Part shown: positions 16,317 through 28,861 of the stretch, one piece after another | Numbering within the stretch: the first letter of the stretch is position 1 | Layout of the letters: each line of letters starts with the position of its first letter | Assembly (NCBI RefSeq): GCF_938028735.1 | Contig: NZ_CALIMF010000001.1 | Coordinates: forward strand, 79,003 to 143,002 | DNA from: an uncultured Thermanaerothrix sp. | Lineage (GTDB): Bacteria > Chloroflexota > Anaerolineae > Anaerolineales > Anaerolineaceae | Length of the DNA stretch: 64,000 bases | Direction of reading: 5' to 3' | Notes under the pieces: generated by a model | The model's database searches: none | Told to the model about the DNA's origin: nothing | The model's input: only the letters and a program-made list of their open reading frames with translations | Program-made: the position numbers and the translations under genes

Positions 16317-16776
16317 TTATATCCCCTCATCCAGGTTTTCCGGATGGGCGTTGATCCATTTTTGAAGGGCACTTGCGATACGGGTGATATCGCCAAGTTG
16401 ATGGGTGCAAATTTCATAAAGTTCTTCTGGGCTGACTTCATGATAAAAATGAACTAGGCGGTTGCGATAGCCAGCCAGAATATTCAACAGAGCACTTTCT
16501 TCGGCGTTGATTACGCCATTTTGGTGAAGAGCACGGGCAATTTCTTTGTACTCGCTCACCCCTAAAGCGAAGCCCTTCACTAGGATGTGTCGTCCCAGGT
16601 CAAACAAAGCCTCAAGGGCGCGTCGAAGACACAATTCGGCTGCAAAAAGATTGCGGGGGTCCCCGAAGAATTCATCGCGGGATGTCAAGGGCAACCTCTG
16701 GATGTGGTCCAGCATATTTGGAGATCCAAGCCAAGCGATCTACGACCACGCGGCGGGAGATTTTCTGGGGCATCAT
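16317..16776 (-). pseudogene. HepT-like HEPN ribonuclease toxin (DUF86), frameshifted near the N-terminus
   Basis: Rx4H motif RNRLVHFY; the N-terminus MMPQKISRRVVVDRLAWISK (from 16776) is one base out of frame with MLDHIQRL (from 16715). Confidence 0.75.
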
Positions 16777-18988: not shown

Positions 18989-20089
18989 TTACTGCTGCTC
19001 TTTGGCCAGCAGATCTGCCAGACTGACGCCCACAGTGGAGCCACGTCCCTCGAAGATCGAGCCGGTGATGCGGTTATCATAGCGCTTTTGGGCCAGTTCG
19101 TAGAGTTCAGGGGTCAGGGGGATGTAACCTACTTCTTTGACGATCTTGGAAGCGTTTTTGAGGTAGAAGGCCACAAAGGCACTGATTTCATCCTTCTGAT
19201 CCACGCGAGCACGGTTGACGTAGATGAAGATGGGACGCGAGAGGGGCTGATAGGTACCGTTGGAGACGGTCTCTAGGGTGGGCAGGACACAGCCGTTTCC
19301 ATTATCAATGGCGACCAGTTTTAGTTTATCCTTATTCTCCTCGTAGTAAGCCAGACCAAAGAACCCTAAGGCGTTTTCATCTCCCGCTATGCCCTGTACC
19401 AGAACATTATCGTCCTCGCTGGGCAAGAAGTCACCCCGGCTAGCCCCCTCTTTGCCGACGATGGCCTGAGTAAAGTAATCGTATGTCCCTGAGTCCGTGC
19501 CGGCACCGTAGAGCGTCAGGGGTCGGTCCGGAAAGCCCGCGCGCACCTGGCTCCATTTGGTGATCTTGCCTTCGGCCTCCGGTTCCCAAATTTTCTTTAA
19601 CTCTTCTACAGTCAGACATTCGACGAAATCATTCTTAGGGTTGACCATTACAGCCAGGCCATCAAATGCCACCGGCAGTTCGATGTACTCAATGCCGTTC
19701 TGTTCGCAGAGTTCGGTTTCCGATTCCTTAATCGGGCGGGAGGCGTTAGAAATATCCGTTTCGCCGTTGCAGAATTTCTTGAATCCCCCGCCGGTGCCCG
19801 AAATGCCCACCGGGACGCGCACGTTCGGGTATTCAGCCTGGAACTCTTCGGCAATGGCAGCGGTGACGGGCGCGACCGTACTGGAACCATCGATCAAGAT
19901 AGTGCCTTCAACATCAGCCGCACTAGTCGGGGCGGGAGTGGCGGTAATGACCTGTGGTGTACCCTGAACAATGCGAGTGATTTCAATGACTGTCGGCTCG
20001 GAAGGTGCAGGGGTGGCTGCCGGAGCACAGGCGCTGGCCACAATGGCGATTACGAAGAGTAAACTTACCAGACGAAATAACTTACGCAT
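18989..20089 (-). CDS. pstS: Phosphate-binding lipoprotein PstS
   Basis: Lipobox [43 protein letters not shown]; start 20089 follows SD gaggag. Confidence 0.96.
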
Positions 20090-20131
20090 GGGTCTTCTCC
20101 TCTCGTTTTGGATGAGATTGTTTCGCATCTC

Positions 20132-20186
20132 AGTATAAACGAGGCGTGTTAAGGTTGCTCGAAAGACGGTTTAAGAATGGGTTAAG
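20132..20186 (-). promoter_or_regulatory. Pho box array plus -10 element of the pstS promoter
   Basis: Minus-strand CTTAAC / CTTAAA / (degenerate TTTCGA) / CTTAAC at an exact 11-bp period (plus coordinates 20181, 20170, 20159, 20148), then 10 bp, then TATACT (20137-20132). Confidence 0.75.
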
Positions 20187-20203
20187 GATTAGGTGGCAAT
20201 GTT

Positions 20204-20262
20204 TTCACATTTGTGAATTATATTCACAAATGACTTGTCAAGGCATGGATAATTCTTATAAT
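20204..20262 (+). promoter_or_regulatory. Operator palindromes and promoter of the SorC-dehydrogenase-PTS operon
   Basis: CATTTGTGAAT-TAT-ATTCACAAATG perfect 11-bp inverted repeat (20208-20232), overlapping TTCACATTTGTGAA; TTGTCA(20235-40)-N16-TATAAT(20257-62). Confidence 0.65.
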
Positions 20263-20299
20263 CGCAATTAGCCTCCATTCGTATTTGCCGGGTTTGAGA

Positions 20300-21301
20300 A
20301 TGTTGATGAACGCAGATCGTCTGGATCTGCTAGCGCGGATTGCCGAGATGTACTATGAAGCCAATCTGACGCAGGACCAGATTGCCAAAATTACCGGCTA
20401 TTCGCGCTCAATGGTGTCGCGCCTGCTAACCGAGGCCCGGCGGCAAGGAGTGGTCGAGATTCGCATCAACCATCCCATGCAGCGACGCCGGGATCTTGAA
20501 CAAGCCCTGCAGGCACATCTAAATCTAGACGAAGCGTGGGTGATGGCGCGGGGAACGCTGGCCCATAGTGAGATGCTGCGTCGCTTAGGTGTGCTGGCAG
20601 CGCGGTTTTTAGAGACCTATCTGCACGACTATATGACGCTGGGGACTTCGTGGGGCACGGCGGTTTATGAAACGGTGAATGCGCTGCAACCGCGCACGTT
20701 TCACGGTATCCGTGTAGTGCAGATGATTGGGGCTTTGGGCACTCCTAACCCGGATATTGATGGTCCTGAACTGGCGCGGCGCATGGCCCGTGCCCTAACT
20801 GGTCAGTACGCCACACTGCCGGTGCCGCTAATTGTGGACAGTGAGGCTACCCGTCAGTCGCTGATGCGGGCGCCCCATGTGCAGCGCGTAACTCAGTTCT
20901 TCCGTCAAATTGATCTGGCGTTGGTTGGTGTTGGGACGGTAGAACCCGAGCATGCCAGCCTCCTGCGCGCTGGCTACCTGACCGCCGAACAATTGGAGGG
21001 TCTGCGCGCCGCCGGCGCGGTGGGAGATGTGTGTGCTATTCACATTGCCCTGGATGGCTCGCTGGTGGATACCCCGTTGACCCGCTGTATTCTGGGCATT
21101 GACGCAGAGACCTTACGCCGTGTCTCCATTCGTATCGGGGTGGCCGGAGGGCAAGCCAAGGCTTTGCCGATCCTCGCCGCCAGCCGCTCCGGGCTGATTA
21201 ATCGTCTGGTGACCGACGAGGTTGCCGCAACCTTTGCTTTACGTGTATTGGAGGAAGGATCTTTGTCATATGTCAACGCAACCGAACCTGATGGTAATTG
21301 A
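20300..21301 (+). CDS. SorC/DeoR-family sugar-binding transcriptional regulator
   Basis: N-terminal [33 protein letters not shown]; sugar-binding domain SWGTAV, GAVGD, GG.AK, LVTD; start 20285-20306 uncertain. Confidence 0.92.
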
Positions 21302-22283
21302 GAATACGATTCCAGTGGATCATGACCAGTTATTAACCGAACTGGGACGTGACCAGGCTCTGGATATGTTAGCGACCATGTGCCTGATCCGTGCCTTTGA
21401 AGAAAAGGCTGAGGATCTCTTTGCCCGGGGGATGGTGCATGGCACAATGCACCTCTCGATTGGCCAGGAAGCCGTGGCAGTTGGCGCTACCCGTGCCATG
21501 CAGAAAGGAGACTACTTACTTAACCATCACCGCGGACATGGGCACTGCTTGGCCTGGGGGAGCGATGTAAACCTGATGATGGCCGAGTTCCTGGGTAAGG
21601 AAACCGGCTACTGCCGTGGGCGTGGCGGCTCAATGCACATCGCCAATGTGGAGGCGAACAACCTCGGTGCCAACGGCATTGTGGGGGGTGGGATTCCCAT
21701 CTCGGTGGGGGTGGGGTTGAGCATCAAAATGCGCCGCACTCACCAGGTCTGCCTGACCATCTTTGGGGACGGAGCGGCCAATGAAGGTGCATTCCATGAG
21801 TCGCTGAACATGGCCAGTATTTGGGATTTGCCGGTGGTGTACCTGTGTGAGAACAACCAATATGCCATGTCTATGCCGATGACCAAGGCGTTCAACATCG
21901 AACGCATTAGCCAGCGAGCATGTGCCTATGGTATTCCTGGCATAACGGTGGATGGTAATGATGTGTTGGCCGTCTACGCCGCCGTGCGCCAGGCGGCAGA
22001 ACGTGCCCGCAGTGGGCAGGGTCCGACCCTGGTAGAGGCTGTGACCTATCGCTGGCGTGGGCACTCCAAGAGCGATCGTCAGGCTTATCGCACCCGTGAG
22101 GAAGTCAAGGCCTGGCAACAGCGCGATCCAATTCGCCGCTTTGCCGGCCTACTGGGTTTGAGTGAGCAGGAATTGGCGGTTTATATATCCGAAGCGCAGC
22201 GCAAAGTGGAGGCGGCGGTTGCATTTGCCCAGGCCAGTCCCGAACCCGATGTGAGCACCATTCTTGAGGGTGTCTATGCGTGA
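21270..22283 (+). CDS. TPP-dependent dehydrogenase E1 alpha subunit (acetoin/pyruvate dehydrogenase type)
   Basis: GQEA, HRGHGH, GRGGSMH, TPP motif GDGA...ENN, YRWRGHS. Confidence 0.92.
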
Positions 22284-23262
22284 GATTACTTACGTCGAAG
22301 CCATCCGCGAAGCCCTGGCCCAGAAAATGGCCGAGGATCCAACGGTTTTTCTCATCGGTGAGGATATCGGCATTTATGGGGGGGCCTTTGGGGCGACCGC
22401 GGGGTTAATTGAGCAATTTGGCGAAGAGCGGGTCATTGATACCCCGATTTCGGAAGCCGGAATTGCCGGCGCCTGTATTGGCGCCGCGCTGACCGGGATG
22501 CGTCCGGTGGGCGAGATCCAGTTCATGGACTTTGTGACCCTGAGCATGGAGCAGTTAGTACTCCAGGCCGCCAAGATTCGCTTTATGTTTGGGGGCAAGG
22601 CCAAAGTGCCGTTTGTGCTACGTATGCCAGGGGGTTCGGGCACGGGTGCGGCGGCGCAGCATTCTGAAAGCCTGGAGAATTGGTTTGTCCATGTGCCGGG
22701 GTTGAAAGTAGTCATGCCCAGTACCCCTTATGATGCCAAGGGGTTATTAATTGCAGCCATTGAAGACGACAATCCAGTCATTTTTGTCGAGCACAAATTG
22801 CTCTATAAAGTCAAAGGGCCAGTACCCGAAGAAATGTATCGCATTCCACTGGGGCAAAGTCACATTGTGCGCGAAGGGAAAGACTTGACCATCGTAGCCA
22901 CTTCGGTCATGGTGCAACGCGCCTTACAAGCCGCCGAGCAGTTGCAGGCAGAGGGCATTGAAGTGGAGATCATTGACCCGCGCACGCTACGTCCGCTGGA
23001 TGATGTTCCGATTATCCGTTCGGTGAAGAAGACCGGGCGTGCCCTGGTGGTACATGAGGCGGTCAAAATGGGTGGGTTTGGCGGCGAGATCGTTGCGCGC
23101 ATCGTCGAGAGCGAGGCATTTGACTATCTGGAAGCCCCGGTGCGTCGCTTAGCGGGCTTGGATATCCCGATCCCTTATAACCGTACCCTGGAGTATCACG
23201 CTGTGCCTCAGGTAGAAAACATCGTGGAAGAAGCCCGTAAATTGGTCAAAGGGGTTTACTAG
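22276..23262 (+). CDS. TPP-dependent dehydrogenase E1 beta subunit
   Basis: [49 protein letters not shown]. Confidence 0.93.
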
Positions 23263-23271
23263 GAGGGAAGC

Positions 23272-24675
23272 GTGGCGCACGAAGTGATCATGCCCAAGTT
23301 TGGCTTTACCCAGGAGACAGCGGAAATCGTGCGCTGGCTTAAGCACGAAGGGGACGTGGTTGAGCAGGGTGAACCGATTGCCGAAGTGACGACGGATAAA
23401 GTCAACATGGAAGTGGAGGCCCCCGCCAGCGGCATTCTGGCTGGCGTGCGTTACCAGGAAGGGGAGGTGGTGCCGGTCACCCAGGTGATCGCCTATATCC
23501 TGCAGCCTGGTGAGGCCTTGCCGGGAGGTGCGCCTGCTTCTGCCGCTGCAGGAACTCCGCCTCAAGAGGTTGCCTTCCCCGCCGAAAAGCCGGTTGAGGG
23601 CGAGGGGGTGCGGGTTACCCCCGTGGCAGCGCGCCTGGCTGAAGTGGCGGGGGTGGATCCGAGCCAAATCCAGGGGAGTGGGCCGGGGGGGCGGGTCACG
23701 CGCAAAGATGTTGAGGCCTACTTGGCCAGCCGGCAAGAAGTTGAGGGTAAGGTGCGGGCTGTACCTGCAGCGCGACGGTTGGCGCGTGAGCTGGGGGTAG
23801 ATTTGAACCAAGTGGCAGGAAGCGGTCCCCAAGGGCGCATTCAATCGGAGGATGTGCAACGTGCCTATGCTACGCGGGCTCAAACCGTTGCTACGGTTCC
23901 TGAGATTGCCCCTGAAGTGGCAAGGCCGGTCGCTCCTGCGCCGAGTGGAGAGACCTTTGGCGTGCAAACGCCGATTGCTCAGGTCATCCCGTTGGCCGGG
24001 ATGCGCAAGGTTATTGCCCAGCGCATGCAGCAGAGCGCTCAAAATGCCCCGCATATCCACCTGGAGATCACCGTGGACGCCACAGCCGCAGAGGCCCTGC
24101 GGGCACGCGCAAATCAGCGCTTGAAAGAGGGGCAAACCAAGGTTAGCCTAACTGCTGTCATTGCACGGGCATGTGCCTGGGCGCTGACCCAGCACCCGCG
24201 ACTGAACGCCTGGCTGGCGAATACACCGCAAGGCGAACAAATCTTGATTCCTGCCCAGGTTAACTTGGGAATTGCCGTGGCGGTGGAGGAGGGATTGATT
24301 GTCCCGGTGGTGCGGGATGCTGCGCGGAAGAACCTACTGCAACTGGCGGGTGAGATCGGGGATCTGGTGGAACGGGCACGGGGCAATCGCCTGAGGCCCG
24401 AAGATGTTGTTGAGGGCACTTTTACCATCTCTAACCTGGGCATGTTGGGGATAGAACGCTTTACGGCCATTATCAATCCGCCGCAGGTGGCTATTCTGGC
24501 GGTGGGGAGTCTGCGACGGGAGGTGGTGGCCGATGCGGAGGGGAAGATTCAGGTACGCCCCGTATTCAGCCTAACTCTGTGCGCTGACCATCGGGTGGTG
24601 GATGGGGCAGTGGCCGCGCGCTTTCTGGCGGATTTGCGGGAGGCGCTGGAGCAACCCGAGGTGATGGTGGTGTGA
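23272..24675 (+). CDS. Dihydrolipoamide acyltransferase E2 (one lipoyl domain, two peripheral-subunit-binding domains)
   Basis: Lipoyl TDKV; two PSBD repeats ([16 protein letters not shown] and [16 protein letters not shown]); FTISNLG; DHRVVDG. Confidence 0.94.
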
Positions 24676-24703
24676 GACTTACAATTTTTAGACCGGAGGG
24701 AGT

Positions 24704-25195
24704 GTGGACTCAACTTTATTAAATCTGCTAGACTTATTAGCGCCGGAGGCGGTTGCGCTTAACTTTCCAGCCACCTCGGCTGAGGCGGTCATCCGACACC
24801 TGGCAGCAGCATTGTTCAAGGGGGGGTATGTGCGGGAGACATTTGCCGAGGCGGCGCTGGAGCGCGAAGCGCGGCTGCCAACGGGTCTGCGACTCTCGGG
24901 CGAAATTCATGCGGCGATCCCGCACACGGACATTGAACATGTCATCCGCCCGGCTGTGGGGCTGGCAACCTTGCCTACGCCAGTGGTGTTTCAGAACATG
25001 ATTGATCCCACAGATGCTGTTCCGGTGCGTCTGGTCTTCTTGCTAGCCTTGGAGCAGCCTAAGTCACAAGTCGAGATGCTACAACAAGTGGCCACCATTT
25101 TACAGAATCCCCAGGTCGTTAGTGAACTGGTTGCTGCACAAACACTAGAGGAGGTGCGGCGGGTACTGGCGCAGGTAGTGCCTACGCAATCGTGA
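24704..25195 (+). CDS. PTS EIIA component, Gat/Mtl-Fru type
   Basis: ERE..LPTGL, AIPHTD (phospho-His), F.NM. Confidence 0.9.
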   Translation: MDSTLLNLLDLLAPEAVALNFPATSAEAVIRHLAAALFKGGYVRETFAEAALEREARLPTGLRLSGEIHAAIPHTDIEHVIRPAVGLATLPTPVVFQNMIDPTDAVPVRLVFLLALEQPKSQVEMLQQVATILQNPQVVSELVAAQTLEEVRRVLAQVVPTQS

Positions 25196-25272
25196 ATGTT
25201 GGTGATTTGTAGTTTTATCGCTGATACCCATCAAATCCCATCCTTCTAAACCTGATCTGTGAGGAGGTTAAC

Positions 25273-25560
25273 GTGAGCAAACCTAAAGTCGTTCTGGTGG
25301 CCTGCGGTACAGCCATTGCAACTTCCACTGTGGTAGCCCATGCCATTGAAGAAGAAATGAAGAAGCGGGGGATCAACATTACAACCCGTCAGTGCAAAGC
25401 GACAGAAGTGCCGAGCCTGGCTGCCGATGCCGACCTGATCGTCACAACCACCCCGCTGCCTTCAAATCTTGGCAAACCCGTGATTCAAACCCTGGCGTTT
25501 CTCACGGGAATCGGAAAGGAGGAGGTGTTAAGGCAGATTGAAGAGATCCTGAAACAATAA
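25273..25560 (+). CDS. PTS EIIB component, galactitol (Gat) family
   Basis: VACGTAIATST (phospho-Cys), FLTGIG. Confidence 0.92.
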   Translation: MSKPKVVLVACGTAIATSTVVAHAIEEEMKKRGINITTRQCKATEVPSLAADADLIVTTTPLPSNLGKPVIQTLAFLTGIGKEEVLRQIEEILKQ

Positions 25561-25628
25561 TTCCCCTATCTTGATCGTTAATCTTTCACGATCCCCGTTT
25601 TTTATTTCAATCCTCTCAGGAGGCAAAA

Positions 25629-27038
25629 ATGGAAGCCGTACTAAGTGCGATTAAGACGTTGTTTGACACGCTCGGCGCCACTGTCATGCTCCCCATCATT
25701 ATCTTCTTGCTGGCTTTGATCCTGGGCGCCAAGCCAGGGCGGGCTTTCCGCGCTGCCGTCACCATCGGTGTGGCTTTCGTCGGTATCAACCTGGTCATTG
25801 GCTTAATGTGGACCAACCTGACCGCGGTGGCGCAGGCCATCGTGAAAAACACCGGCGTCACCCGCGATGTGGTGGATGTGGGTTGGCCTTCAGCCGCTGC
25901 CATTGCCTTCGGCTCTTCGGTGGGGTTGTGGGTGATTCCGTTAACCCTGGTGGTTAACCTGGTGCTGCTGACCTTGCGCCTGACCCGCACCCTGAATGTG
26001 GATGTGTGGAACTACTGGCACTTTGCTTTCATCGGCTCGCTCATTGTAGCCGGTACTGGCAATCTGCTGTACGGGTTGATCGGTGCGGCGTTAGCGGCAG
26101 CCCTGGCGCTTTTCCTGGGTGACTGGACGGCCAAAGCGGTGCAGAAGTTTTACAGCCTGCCGGGTATTTCTATCCCCCACTTGACCTCTGCTCCCATCGT
26201 GCCTATCGCGATTGCCACCAACTGGGTCATTGAACGCATCCCAGGGTTGCGCGATGCTGAGTGGGATACTGAGACCATCCGCAAGCGTTTGGGTGTCTTT
26301 GGTGAGCCGGTTATTTTGGGCCTGGTCATCGGTCTGGTATTGGGTGCCATCGCTTTCTACAATGCGGGTGATGCGGTGACGGTGCTGGCCAAAGTCCTGG
26401 GGGCCGGCATTAACCTGGCTGCTGTTATGTTGCTGCTCCCGCGCATGGTGGCAATCCTGATGGAAGGCTTGATCCCGATCTCTGAGTCGGCACGTGAGTT
26501 CATGCAGAAGCGCGCGGGTGGCGATCGCGAGTTCTACATTGGCCTCGACTCGGCCATCCTGATCGGCCATCCGGCCGCGATTGCTAGTGCGCTAGTGCTT
26601 GTTCCGATTGCCATTTTGCTCAGCATCATCCTGCCGGGTAACCGCGTCATCCTTTTTGCCGACTTGGCCGTAATCCCCTTCGTGGTGGCTATGACGGCGC
26701 CGGTGATGCGCGGGAATGTGCTGCGCATCGTTATCGCCGGGACGATTACCCTGGCAATTGGCTTCTACATCGCTACCTCCATGGCACCGCTCTTCACTTC
26801 CGCGGCGGTGGCCTCCGGCTTTTCACTGCCTGAAGGCGCAGTGCAGATTACCAGCATCGCAGATGGTTTCCTGTGGCCGCCATTCCTCTTCGTCCGCACA
26901 GTGATGGGGCTGGGTGCGCTGGGGCTGTTGGTTCTAGCGGCTTTGCTGGGTGTGGCGTTCTTCTTATTCCTGCGCAACACCAAAGCCTGGGAAGTGGCTG
27001 CGGGTGCACCTGCAGAGGTCTCGGCTTCGGCTGACTAA
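25629..27038 (+). CDS. PTS EIIC component, galactitol (Gat) family
   Basis: DVGWP, TLNVDVWNYWH, PRMV..LMEGL.PISE, IGLDSA; multiple TM segments. Confidence 0.94.
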   Translation: MEAVLSAIKTLFDTLGATVMLPIIIFLLALILGAKPGRAFRAAVTIGVAFVGINLVIGLMWTNLTAVAQAIVKNTGVTRDVVDVGWPSAAAIAFGSSVGLWVIPLTLVVNLVLLTLRLTRTLNVDVWNYWHFAFIGSLIVAGTGNLLYGLIGAALAAALALFLGDWTAKAVQKFYSLPGISIPHLTSAPIVPIAIATNWVIERIPGLRDAEWDTETIRKRLGVFGEPVILGLVIGLVLGAIAFYNAGDAVTVLAKVLGAGINLAAVMLLLPRMVAILMEGLIPISESAREFMQKRAGGDREFYIGLDSAILIGHPAAIASALVLVPIAILLSIILPGNRVILFADLAVIPFVVAMTAPVMRGNVLRIVIAGTITLAIGFYIATSMAPLFTSAAVASGFSLPEGAVQITSIADGFLWPPFLFVRTVMGLGALGLLVLAALLGVAFFLFLRNTKAWEVAAGAPAEVSASAD

Positions 27039-27061
27039 CGCCAATCTCCGCTTCATTTTTG

Positions 27062-27090
27062 GAACAGCCCGGGTGCGCCCTGGGCTGTTC
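27062..27090. terminator. Probable bidirectional terminator between convergent genes
   Basis: GAACAGCCCGGG/CCTGGGCTGTTC stem. Confidence 0.55.
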
Positions 27091-27116
27091 TGCTAGTTGG
27101 ACTGTTACGACTATGG

Positions 27117-28106
27117 TTAGCGCATCAGCCCGCGGATGATCAAATCCACCGCTTCATCTTCGCTCAGTCCCCGCGCCATCAGCGTTTCCAGTTCCTTGCG
27201 GTTGACAGTACCAATGGCAGCTTCGTGGGTGACTTGCGCCTGATCGTGGCGAACGATGACTAAAGGATTGTTACTGGCCTGGGCTTGTCCGCGCACGATC
27301 TCGGTGCAATCCATGTGTCCGCGGGCACCTGGGGCGTTCCCCTCAGTGACCGTATCTACCCGACTTTGGGCGCGATCCTGGACGGCAATGCGTGTGCGGG
27401 TCAGACCACGAGCACCAGGGCCATCCAAGACGACCACTTCGCGCACGTGGATGGTATCCTCGCTCTTGCCATAGGCTTTGGTGACCAGTTCCGCTACACC
27501 ACCGGCGCCAACGCGCACGTGGTAATCTAGGCGCAGATCACCCACCCGCCCCCGTGTCAGGGCAAAGGTGGTGATGAAGTGTCCGCCATCCTCAACCCTT
27601 ACCTCGGCCTGGGGCACGACCACCGTCCCGCCGTAAGGGCCGTGAAAGTGCTCTTCAGCATAAGTCAGGCTGGCCTGACGGCCCACCTGAATGCGTGCTT
27701 GCATGCGGTGCTCAACTTTGACGGCATTGGGGAACGAACAGTGTGCCAGGAAGCGCACCTGGGCATAGTCGCCGATCTCATAATCGGCAACAATCTCTTG
27801 AATGCCCTCTGCCGGTAGCAACCCAAAGCACAGGTGGACAGGTTGGGCGAGGCGAGTGTGAGGTTCAACCCAAATACGGGCACGGACGCCGTGGGGCAAG
27901 CTCTCGGCCCTAAAGTGCACACCAGGAATTTCATGAGCAACTAAGACTTGGTTAGCGGAAATGACCAGGGTGGCAACTTGAGGCAGCTCAAGCACCTTGG
28001 GATCGCCGCCGGCCTGTTGATAGGCATCCATCATGGCCTTGAGTTCACCCGCCCAGGCTGGAGCGATCTCGCCAGAGGGTGGAGTAAAGCGGATTGCGTG
28101 GGTCAT
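27117..28106 (-). CDS. SufB/SufD-family Fe-S scaffold (SmsB-like)
   Basis: VHLCFG, AHCSFP, GHMDCTEIV, VTHEAAIG, LMARGLSEDEA; ATG 28106 overlaps the sufC-like stop. Confidence 0.9.
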   Translation of the reverse strand: MTHAIRFTPPSGEIAPAWAGELKAMMDAYQQAGGDPKVLELPQVATLVISANQVLVAHEIPGVHFRAESLPHGVRARIWVEPHTRLAQPVHLCFGLLPAEGIQEIVADYEIGDYAQVRFLAHCSFPNAVKVEHRMQARIQVGRQASLTYAEEHFHGPYGGTVVVPQAEVRVEDGGHFITTFALTRGRVGDLRLDYHVRVGAGGVAELVTKAYGKSEDTIHVREVVVLDGPGARGLTRTRIAVQDRAQSRVDTVTEGNAPGARGHMDCTEIVRGQAQASNNPLVIVRHDQAQVTHEAAIGTVNRKELETLMARGLSEDEAVDLIIRGLMR

Positions 28107-28861
28107 GGTTGGTTCTCCTTGGATTCGAGGCCCAAAGTCATGGGTTCCGGCGGCATAGGGTGCCGTTGGCAATGTTCGCGGTAGAAGCGCCGTGTTTCTT
28201 CCGCATTGCCAACATAAGCAATGCTGCCCAGGCACATCAGGGAAGCACTATCGCCGATTTCGGCCAATTCATCGCGGTGGGTAATGAGTAAAACAGTGCT
28301 TCCTTCATCGGCCATGCGTCGAATCAGGCGCTCTATATCCGTCAGAGAAAGCGTATCAATGCCGGAGTCCGGTTCATCGAGAATGGCCAGGCGTGGGCGC
28401 ATTGCATACACGGCGGCCAATTCAATGCGCTTGCGCTCGCCACCGGAGAGGGTTTTATCCACCGCTCGATAGGCATATTGAGCCGGGGGGAGGGCCACGG
28501 CTTCAAGAGCTTCTAACACGCGTTGCCGGCTCGACTCTTTCATGCCTAGACTAATATATTTACCCACTGGGATGCCCTCGAAGCGGGCCGGTTCTTGCCA
28601 GGCAAGAGTAATCCCCAAACGCGCACGTTCTGAAAGGCTCAGTCCGGTGATGTCGCGGCCCTCAAAGAGGATTTGACCGCGGTCAGGGGTGTAACCACTG
28701 CATCCCATAATGGTGTATGCAAGCGTAGACTTCCCCGAACCGTTAAGGCCCAACAGTACATGAATCTCCCCTGGTTTCAGGGCCAAGTTGACATTATTCA
28801 ACAGCACATGACCCTCGCGGGCCAAGTACAAATCTTTTATCTCGAGCAAATAGGGTTGCAT
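28103..28861 (-). CDS. SufC-like ABC ATPase (SmsC-like)
   Basis: GLNGSGKST, WQEPARFEG, LSGGERKRIE, LDEPDSGID, LITH; C-terminal Cys residues. Confidence 0.9.
   Translation of the reverse strand: MQPYLLEIKDLYLAREGHVLLNNVNLALKPGEIHVLLGLNGSGKSTLAYTIMGCSGYTPDRGQILFEGRDITGLSLSERARLGITLAWQEPARFEGIPVGKYISLGMKESSRQRVLEALEAVALPPAQYAYRAVDKTLSGGERKRIELAAVYAMRPRLAILDEPDSGIDTLSLTDIERLIRRMADEGSTVLLITHRDELAEIGDSASLMCLGSIAYVGNAEETRRFYREHCQRHPMPPEPMTLGLESKENQP

Follow-up and report, generated by a model that had tools for sequence, protein, structure and literature searches.

What substrate could bring a lipoyl-dependent dehydrogenase complex and a sugar phosphotransferase system (PTS) together in one operon? 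This question is raised by a seven-gene locus (positions 20300 to 27038) in a stretch of 64,000 nucleotides, hereafter the window, from contig NZ_CALIMF010000001.1 (positions 79,003 to 143,002, forward strand) of an uncultured Thermanaerothrix sp. The original prediction held that the PTS product is itself the substrate of the thiamine pyrophosphate (TPP)-dependent E1 component, and named three options: a ketose phosphate yielding glycolyl-CoA, a 1-deoxyketose phosphate yielding acetyl-CoA, or a 2-keto sugar acid phosphate. The genes beside related E1s and the acetyltransferase score of the E2 favor the second, in the form of DXP (1-deoxy-D-xylulose 5-phosphate), and the glycolyl-CoA and 2-keto-acid options gain no support from neighboring genes. 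Judged from sequence comparisons, DXP is quite probably the E1 substrate. The whole route, in which 1-deoxy-D-xylulose would enter as DXP and be converted to glyceraldehyde 3-phosphate (GAP), acetyl-CoA and NADH, has in our view a slightly better than even chance of being right. Literature searches within CC-licensed PMC articles and bioRxiv, a scope that leaves subscription journals outside, returned no title or abstract describing catabolism of DXP, deoxyxylulose or methylerythritol by an E1/E2 complex.

The seven genes and their control region

Seven intact open reading frames (ORFs) follow one another without breaks on the + strand, in the set first proposed:

20300..21301, + strand: SorC/DeoR-family sugar-phosphate-sensing regulator (333 aa; PF04198; family and structure matches)
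21270..22283, + strand: TPP-dependent E1alpha (337 aa; PF00676; H57-G-T59-x-H-x-S63 and G-H-S266-K267-S268-D)
22276..23262, + strand: E1beta (328 aa; PF02779/80; E60, H129)
23272..24675, + strand: E2 dihydrolipoamide acyltransferase (467 aa; lipoyl K43, two E3-binding domains, DHR)
24704..25195, + strand: PTS EIIA, Gat type (163 aa; H74; best model GatA)
25273..25560, + strand: PTS EIIB, Gat type (95 aa; C11; best model GatB)
25629..27038, + strand: PTS EIIC, Gat family (469 aa; EIIC clade mostly tied to the E1 clade described below)

The catalytic residues that the original prediction called intact were all located: the GDG...NN TPP motif of E1alpha (GDG at residue 166), the lipoyl lysine and D439-H440-R441 motif of E2, the EIIA histidine, and the EIIB cysteine. 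H265 of E1alpha and E60 and H129 of E1beta are present as well. With these residues, and with an E2 that has a lipoyl domain, two E3-binding domains and a catalytic domain, the E1 and E2 proteins fit the 2-oxoacid/acetoin dehydrogenase complex superfamily. The PTS is of the Gat family, with separate EIIA and EIIB proteins and an EIIC nearer GatC than UlaA; EIIC scores above the PF03611 cut-off and reaches 457 bits on TIGR00827, below the cut-off of 542. The regulator combines an N-terminal helix-turn-helix with the PF04198 sugar-binding domain, and its best PDB match is 2W48. The most probable start codon of E1alpha is ATG 21270, inside the 3' end of sorC, with AAGGA ten bases upstream. E1alpha and E1beta overlap by 8 nt, and the remaining intergenic gaps measure 9, 28, 77 and 68 nt; from the gene overlaps and short gaps, we infer that the seven genes are co-transcribed. 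An ORF and family scan between the divergent pstS and the convergent sufB-like gene revealed no kinase, dehydrogenase, epimerase, aldolase or E3, in agreement with the earlier statement that the locus has no polyol-phosphate dehydrogenase and none of these other enzymes.

Four further elements flank the genes:

20204..20217, no strand: operator box 1, TTCACATTTGTGAA, palindrome TTCACAwwTGTGAA, predicted SorC site (motif conservation)
20223..20236, no strand: operator box 2, a degenerate copy 19 bp downstream of box 1, overlapping the -35 hexamer
20235..20262, + strand: sigma70-like promoter (-35 TTGTCA, 16-nt spacer, -10 TATAAT; 11/12 matches)
27061..27091, no strand: 13-bp G+C-rich hairpin (z -3.38), between the convergent EIIC and sufB-like genes

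Of 58 distinct regions upstream of sorC, 36 contain the operator motif TCACAWWTGTGA with one mismatch allowed, compared with a mean of 0.24 and a maximum of 2 in shuffles; its exact form occurs once in the whole assembly, at 20204-20217. The operator resembles a Rex or CRP box, but that reading was rejected: its spacer exceeds that of such a box by one base, and the actual unit is TTCACAwwTGTGAA. The promoter at 20235 is the sole + strand sigma70-like site in 19000-28500, and its -10 (20257-20262) is preserved in three Thermanaerothrix loci (L014-L016); scanning both strands of this region returned 3 sites versus 3.9 in shuffles, and the scan is therefore no proof by itself. No U-tract follows the hairpin, and the terminator scan did not pick it up. 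Of the bounds first assigned to the operon, the operator and the promoter were recovered, and the terminator is borne out only in part.

Relatives of the window E1 and the genes beside them

A phylogeny of E1 against AcoA and PdhA had been proposed as a check, and it places the window E1 outside both the acetoin-context and the pyruvate clades. In a tree of 161 E1alpha+beta sequences, with acetoin references picked by genomic context (AcoX, sigma54 or acetoin reductase) and not by assay, the window E1 falls in a clade with a support of 0.999 (132 tips, or 128 after removal of four basal tips, the 128-tip node being weak). The seven acetoin-context E1s form a separate group (0.965), and the pyruvate dehydrogenase (PDH) of the host genome also stands apart. 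Neighbors were counted at E1-anchored loci in which E1alpha is flanked on either side by 4 kb or more, excluding EIIC-anchored loci and the four basal tips; short flanks removed 55 of 128 loci in the clade and 5 of 29 outside, 20 hand-picked loci were kept out of tree and counts, and none of the conclusions depends on the unpublished genomes G186 and G043. A SorC gene accompanies E1 at 38 of the 47 clade loci versus 0/24 outside, and a PTS, a DXR-II-like protein (DRL) or a RuBisCO-like protein (RLP) at 35/47 versus 0/24.

The clade carries an active-site signature, HGTxHxS/GHSKSD: H57, T59, S63 and S266-K267-S268 are kept in 119-127 of the 128 members (residue numbers in the clade alignment run one higher), and acetoin-context E1s have P/G, F, Y and F-E-G at these positions. 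The signature aligns with the human E1alpha segments GFCHLC and GHSMSD, which we take to line the substrate channel, and a polar, basic pocket of this kind would suit a phosphorylated substrate such as a sugar phosphate. The best curated model for E1alpha is PDH alpha, at 373.5 bits versus an equivalog cut-off of 393.85, and its motifs differ from the GFxHLY and GHSMSD of PdhA; E1beta passes the broad PdhB subfamily model. The window E1 neither groups with acetoin-context E1s nor has their motifs, and no sigma54-dependent AcoR, AcoX or acetoin/butanediol dehydrogenase was found among the neighbors of the locus. E2 scores best as an acetyltransferase (352 bits versus at most 271 for succinyltransferases), and alphaproteobacterial clade members carry an AcoC-type E2. 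All parts come from known families, but by the features compared the cluster does not fit acetoin dehydrogenase, PDH or galactitol-type catabolic operons. The ESM Atlas returned nothing specific for E1alpha. Fused E1alpha-beta proteins of about 690 aa occur in the same clade, in Thermoflexus and other Anaerolineae (L033, L045, L046, L053, L202, L203, L219, L276-L278, L284).

The linkage of E1 to EIIC, which the original prediction wanted tested for recurrence, is not unique to this genome. Among loci with an EIIC at least 58% identical to that of the window, 40 of 58 carry E1/E2 (20/29 when 6 kb is available on both sides; 1 of the 79 EIIC loci was left out for want of a label). The nearest EIIC relatives are those of Thermanaerothrix (95-97%). 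In one sample of 301 Chloroflexota genomes, 13 of 14 Gat-EIIC matches lie within about 10 kb of a clade E1alpha; in a sample of the class, 87 of 301 genomes have the E1alpha at E 1e-108 or better. The SorC/E1/E2/PTS layout, in varied gene order, also appears in Caldisericia, Atribacterota, Brevibacillus, Pseudoroseomonas and Clostridioides difficile. A GatD-like polyol-phosphate dehydrogenase, which the original prediction considered normal for Gat operons, is missing from the window and from most PTS-E1 operons, a Zn-dehydrogenase lying within 3 kb at 6 of the 58 close EIIC loci.

Other genes were observed at these loci. A small predicted membrane protein of about 135-145 aa without a Pfam match (L031:11830-12246, L037:1777-2211) follows EIIC at 29 + 5 of 79 EIIC loci and is absent from the window and the assembly; in the ESM Atlas it matched hypothetical clusters only. 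A zinc-ribbon-like CxxC...CxxC protein of ~105 aa, also without a Pfam match (L093:14948-15298, L095, L062, L070, L150-L160, L207-L218), spans Bacillota, Caldisericia and Chloroflexota and is sometimes fused to a TIM-barrel-like domain. Alphaproteobacterial Gat EIICs (L049-L051, L056-L061, L067, L094) are 65-70% identical, precede an HPr-EI fusion and branch beside the window EIIC inside the Chloroflexota clade (0.987), which may reflect transfer.

Three unrelated modules that form DXP recur beside clade E1s: a sorbitol-type PTS with DXR-II, an RLP with or without a methylsulfurylase cupin, and a xylulokinase. In the first, a GutM-SrlA-SrlE-SrlB-DRL cassette takes the slot of the Gat genes. 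All 19 loci with a sorbitol-type PTS carry DRL (16 within 8 kb, L095 at 8.3 kb, L207 and L209 on extension), and all 33 well-flanked Gat-only loci are without it; at L050, which has a short flank, a DRL-E1 operon converges on a Gat operon. The two types of loci are intermixed among the nearest relatives of the window E1 (74-89% identity) and SorC and have the operator in common, so both modules likely deliver the same intermediate. In the sample of 301 Chloroflexota genomes, none of the 16 best DXR-II-like matches lies outside the 21 genomes whose E1alpha scores best; 14 of the 16 share a contig with E1alpha at a distance of no more than 13 kb, and all 21 genomes carry DRL or a Gat PTS. By the title of a 2004 article by Testa et al., the sorbitol PTS reportedly transports methylerythritol. 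An accessible passage of PMC3994034 cites that article with the wording 'ATP-dependant kinase'. In rhizobia, an ATP-binding cassette (ABC) transporter and a PfkB kinase stand in for the PTS ahead of DRL-E1, and an ispD gene lies inside the L207 cluster, where L209 has an ORF of the same size at the equivalent place. The DRLs match Brucella DXR-II (3UPL) with 315 bits, have the SAF domain, and keep G121, D167, E168, K191, K193, T229, E232 and R320 in 34/34 cases and V351 in 30/34. We take the acidic residues D167, E168 and E232 to have roles in DXR-II. G121, K191, K193, T229 and R320 are tied to DXR-II function in the accessible text of PMC3847144.

The second module is found upstream of E1 in L166 and L168, as a DeepYkr-type RLP (3QFW, 335 bits) with an Rru_A2000-like cupin (E 6e-46), and in L265, where an FGGY kinase and an RLP immediately precede E1alpha. 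RLP and cupin enzymes make DXP, according to the accessible parts of PMC5893883 and PMC6302742. Clade E1 is present in 13 of 18 RLP genomes versus 87/301 overall, counts in which related genomes are not independent. The third module is represented by L167, where XylB scores above cut-off near E1; xylulokinase phosphorylates 1-deoxyxylulose. Taken together, these neighborhoods suggest that the three module types converge on DXP as their common intermediate. At L208, L274, L280 and L281, a variant that combines DRL and E1/E2 with a PfkB kinase, a split transketolase and xylose-isomerase-like proteins may import a longer or branched deoxy sugar.

DXP is a methyl ketol, the kind of group that acetoin-type E1s cleave; applied to DXP, this chemistry would be the reverse of the second half of the DXP synthase reaction. 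In the window, phosphate would pass from phosphoenolpyruvate via enzyme I (EI), HPr, EIIA H74 and EIIB C11 to C5 of the predicted sugar during transport by EIIC. The TPP ylide would then attack DXP at its C2 methyl ketone, and breakage of the C2-C3 bond would free GAP and leave hydroxyethyl-TPP. Lipoyl K43 would be reductively acetylated and E2 would pass the acetyl group to CoA, steps established for the family, before a shared E3, known from relatives and not from the host assembly, reoxidizes lipoamide with formation of NADH. DXP may also act as the effector of SorC and so free the double operator over the -35. In relatives, methylerythritol would reach DXP via a sorbitol-type PTS, or an ABC transporter and PfkB, and then DXR-II in reverse, and methylthio- or 5-deoxy-ribulose 1-phosphate would do so via RLP with or without the cupin; xylulokinase would offer a further route.

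The clade signature is also present in AcoA of C. difficile acoRABCL (CD0035-CD0039, matched to the published locus by gene order), with 50/61% identity and the same order of regulator, E1alpha, E1beta and E2. In the accessible part of the published study (Wetzel et al., bioRxiv 10.1101/2023.07.28.551048), deletion of acoA left acetoin level and growth unchanged and increased sporulation, and acetoin repressed the aco promoter. These results argue against acetoin as the substrate. The record NZ_CP149680.1 (L098/L106) bears the label of a C. difficile plasmid, but its gltX, cysS, proS, ispD and ispF genes make it look like a chromosome fragment.

Host genome, doubts and alternative explanations

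Does the host genome fit a DXP-degrading route? The assembly, which is 88% complete, encodes EI, HPr and lipoate ligases (LplA/B) elsewhere, a separate PDH E1/E2 on contig C14, transketolases and HMG-CoA reductase. DXS, DXR, DXR-II/DRL and IspG were not found in it; for DRL, the PF21135 profile was run without a positive control, and blastp with a DRL query likewise gave no match. The RLP and cupin of the methylthioadenosine (MTA)-isoprenoid shunt are not present in the host genome. Because the host has HMG-CoA reductase and DXS, DXR and IspG were not detected, the route is likely catabolic rather than biosynthetic. IspG is also missing from seven others of the 21 top-E1 genomes (8/21 with the host), including five that are 98-99% complete with DRL beside E1, and DXP therefore cannot feed isoprenoids in those genomes. 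The other 13 have IspG, and there a side use of DXP in salvage is possible. At C23:49981-51636 and C16:1730-7682 and on C27, C28 and C6, the host also encodes a further pair of Gat-type PTSs (a contig end truncates one, and the other comes with a class II aldolase and an EIIA-HPr fusion), PTSs of the ascorbate and fructose types, and a DhaKLM set.

The expectation that E3, EI and HPr are supplied from elsewhere was borne out for EI and HPr; E3 was not found in the 88%-complete assembly but scores above cut-off in 5/5 related genomes. In T. daxensis, the nearest relative, lpdA is the last gene of a separate E1-E2-E3 operon and lies about 2 kb beyond the sequence that corresponds to the end of contig C30. 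Since this lpdA sits just past that match, the host E3 was likely lost in an assembly gap. A 141-bp match at the end of C7 was rejected as proof of the gap, as it is a repeat found at several contig ends (C7, C8, C30); the lpdA-bearing operon of the relatives falls beyond one of them.

Several observations weigh against a DXP route in the window. Gat-family PTSs usually carry polyols or galactose, and the window itself holds nothing that names the imported sugar. All evidence on the substrate is guilt by association drawn from related, non-independent genomes; 8 of the 13 EIIC-carrying genomes belong to one genus. A true E3 (LpdA) was not found in the 88%-complete host assembly, where the best matches are MerA and an LpdA-like quinone reductase. 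The PTS lies apart from E1 at 9 of 29 well-flanked close EIIC loci, 12 of 47 E1-anchored clade loci have no nearby PTS, DRL or RLP, and no recognizable sugar genes were seen among the neighbors of L271 and L272. H250 of DXR-II is kept in just 24/34 DRLs, the RLP-cupin link is based on two lineages, and in L166/L168 DhaK/DhaL genes sit between the cupin and E1. In C. difficile, E1 branches at the clade base with weak support (0.31/0.59) and EIIC lies outside the EIIC clade of the window; the accessible part of the same study (bioRxiv 10.1101/2023.07.28.551048) adds that the PTS is not co-transcribed with acoL and that promoter activity dropped when acoA was mutated, the reverse of what simple substrate induction would give. 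Some Gat operons include a cupin (12/73 clade loci), and some a Zn-dehydrogenase, as in Thermoflexus, or a class II aldolase/epimerase; the sugar taken up may therefore require additional conversion. Because of these additions, and because our literature search turned up no article on natural sources of free 1-deoxyxylulose, the imported sugar is the main doubt in the whole reading.

The alternative that survives best, although we consider it unlikely, is that E1 does split DXP and that the Gat PTS takes up, in place of free 1-deoxyxylulose, a precursor, the converting enzyme being encoded elsewhere or lost in the host. Candidates are 1-methylthio-xylulose (with a cupin), a 1-deoxypentitol (with a Zn-dehydrogenase) and a 1-deoxypentulose epimer (with a class II epimerase). 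Cupins trail EIIC in many relatives, that of L032 matching Rru_A2000 at E 1e-19, and T. solaris retains one directly 3' of EIIC; Thermoflexus sometimes adds a methylsulfurylase-like cupin to its Zn-dehydrogenase, and the class II aldolase/epimerase is found in C. difficile, L214 and L039-type loci. However, most Gat operons have no such extras (6/58 and 12/73, as above), the T. solaris cupin is TM1459-like without an Rru_A2000 match at 1e-6, and the sole cupin match of the host is 24-34% identical and far from the locus.

A shade less likely still is cleavage of another phosphorylated ketol or keto acid, such as a ketose phosphate (e.g., xylulose 5-phosphate) yielding glycolyl-CoA, the DRL product of a branched polyol different from methylerythritol, a 2-keto sugar acid phosphate, or phosphorylated 4,5-dihydroxy-2,3-pentanedione (P-DPD). 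The polar active site would suit any sugar phosphate, the regulator scores 152 bits on LsrR, and some DRL-E1 loci (the L208, L274, L280, L281 variant) combine PfkB with a split transketolase, as in branched-sugar pathways. By contrast, the RLP-cupin pair, DXR-II and IspD all indicate DXP and the methylerythritol phosphate (MEP) pathway, E2 scores best as an acetyltransferase with AcoC-type E2s in alphaproteobacterial members, and the transketolases encoded by the host already provide a route for ordinary ketose phosphates. The autoinducer-2 (AI-2)/P-DPD idea was dropped for lack of Lsr genes, as no LsrK, LsrG or LsrF was recognized among the scanned neighbors. The regulator reaches 152 bits versus 486 for the LsrR equivalog, and the two FGGY kinases scanned score higher on XylB than on the AI-2 kinase.

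It is very improbable that the locus encodes an ordinary acetoin dehydrogenase or a second PDH lying, as a module mosaic, beside an unrelated polyol PTS. The best curated E1alpha model is indeed PDH alpha (373 bits, cut-off 394), public annotation names the relatives pdhA or acoA, and the PTS is separate at the 9/29 loci mentioned above. Against this stand the separate clade and signature, the absence of sugar-PTS or SorC neighbors at all 24 outside loci, the host's own PDH on C14 and the C. difficile knockout, which in the accessible text has no acetoin phenotype. Moreover, of the nine genomes with a separated PTS, five were examined, and each of these has a 58-62% identical E1alpha at another site, adjoining DRL, FGGY kinase or SorC genes. 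Least probable of all is an anabolic or salvage role, in which E1 makes DXP as a DXS substitute and imported deoxyxylulose/methylerythritol feeds isoprenoid, thiamine or B6 synthesis: IspG in 13/21 top-E1 genomes, IspD in one cluster type and a mutant PDH E1 able to replace DXS (accessible text of PMC10663253) speak for it, but the host and seven other genomes have no IspG, five of these being near-complete with DRL beside E1, a lipoyl E2 and often E3 are retained though DXP synthesis needs neither, and the importer is under sugar-phosphate regulator control.

Returning to oxidative cleavage of DXP, we hold it moderately probable that this widespread, mis-annotated PDH/acetoin branch is a dedicated DXP dehydrogenase, a catabolic counterpart to DXP synthase and a common sink for deoxyxylulose, methylerythritol and S-adenosylmethionine (SAM) by-products. 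Its scope would be about 29% of sampled Anaerolineae (87/301), rhizobia, Bacillales and C. difficile, including the 'aco' sporulation phenotype.

Neighboring features and comparison with known systems

Outside the operon, three TTAAG-type direct repeats at 20147-20190, 5' of the divergent pstS, resemble a Pho box. Positions 27117-28861 hold a convergent SufC/SufB pair, the second gene having the minimal SUF protein SmsB as its best model, below cut-off. A short - strand ORF at 16317-16715 presumably resembles a DUF86/HEPN protein.

If true, the DXP route would provide a missing catabolic exit for DXP and methylerythritol, making food of released MEP-pathway intermediates, and would explain DXR-II in genomes without the rest of that pathway. 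Many pdhA/acoA annotations would be corrected, with HGTxHxS/GHSKSD identifying members, and the likely DXP-responsive regulator and its operator would be usable as an isoprenoid-flux sensor.

How does the locus compare with known systems? With AcoA/AcoB/AcoC/AcoL it shares an alpha2beta2-type TPP E1 and a lipoyl E2, together with a predicted use of E3 and a predicted ketol cleavage to an aldehyde and acetyl-CoA. AcoABCL differ in having PGFVHLY/GHFEGD where the clade has HGTxHxS/GHSKSD, and sigma54 AcoR where the clade has SorC; clade loci lack AcoX and acetoin reductase and are tied to PTS, DXR-II, RLP or sugar kinases. Gat-type PTS operons include E. coli gatABC-gatD and the D-arabitol PTS with arabitol-phosphate dehydrogenase. 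The window has their EIIA/EIIB/EIIC and phospho-acceptor His and Cys, but no polyol-phosphate dehydrogenase, kinase or aldolase, and its EIIC, below the TIGR00827 cut-off, falls in a clade mostly tied to the clade E1. Phosphoketolase, a TPP enzyme that splits a pentulose 5-phosphate, works by dehydration and yields acetyl phosphate without any redox step. The proposed route would likewise yield GAP and an activated C2 unit, but by oxidation via lipoamide and in a different protein family, and would, if true, be the oxidative, CoA-linked counterpart of phosphoketolase.

The likeness to DXS and the early MEP pathway lies in the hydroxyethyl-TPP intermediate, the DXP/GAP pair and the DXR-II-type enzymes of relatives (PMC3847144); the window route is predicted to run in the opposite direction and oxidatively (lipoyl E2, NADH, acetyl-CoA), and IspG was not found in the host assembly. 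The MTA-isoprenoid shunt of Rhodospirillum rubrum and Rhodopseudomonas palustris (DeepYkr RLP and cupin), both enzymes of which lie upstream of E1 in L166/L168 and the RLP alone in L265, sends DXP to isoprenoids, as given in the accessible part of PMC5893883, whereas the window route would burn it. Closest in layout is C. difficile acoRABCL, with a SorC/DeoR regulator, E1alpha, E1beta, E2 and an adjoining Gat PTS; unlike the window, it has its own E3, and its PTS has a separate sigma54 regulator and another EIIC branch. In the accessible part of their article, Wetzel et al. keep the acetoin label and propose no alternative substrate (bioRxiv 10.1101/2023.07.28.551048). If the DXP route is true, this 'aco' operon, whose loss gives more sporulation with the same acetoin use, would gain a specific substrate.

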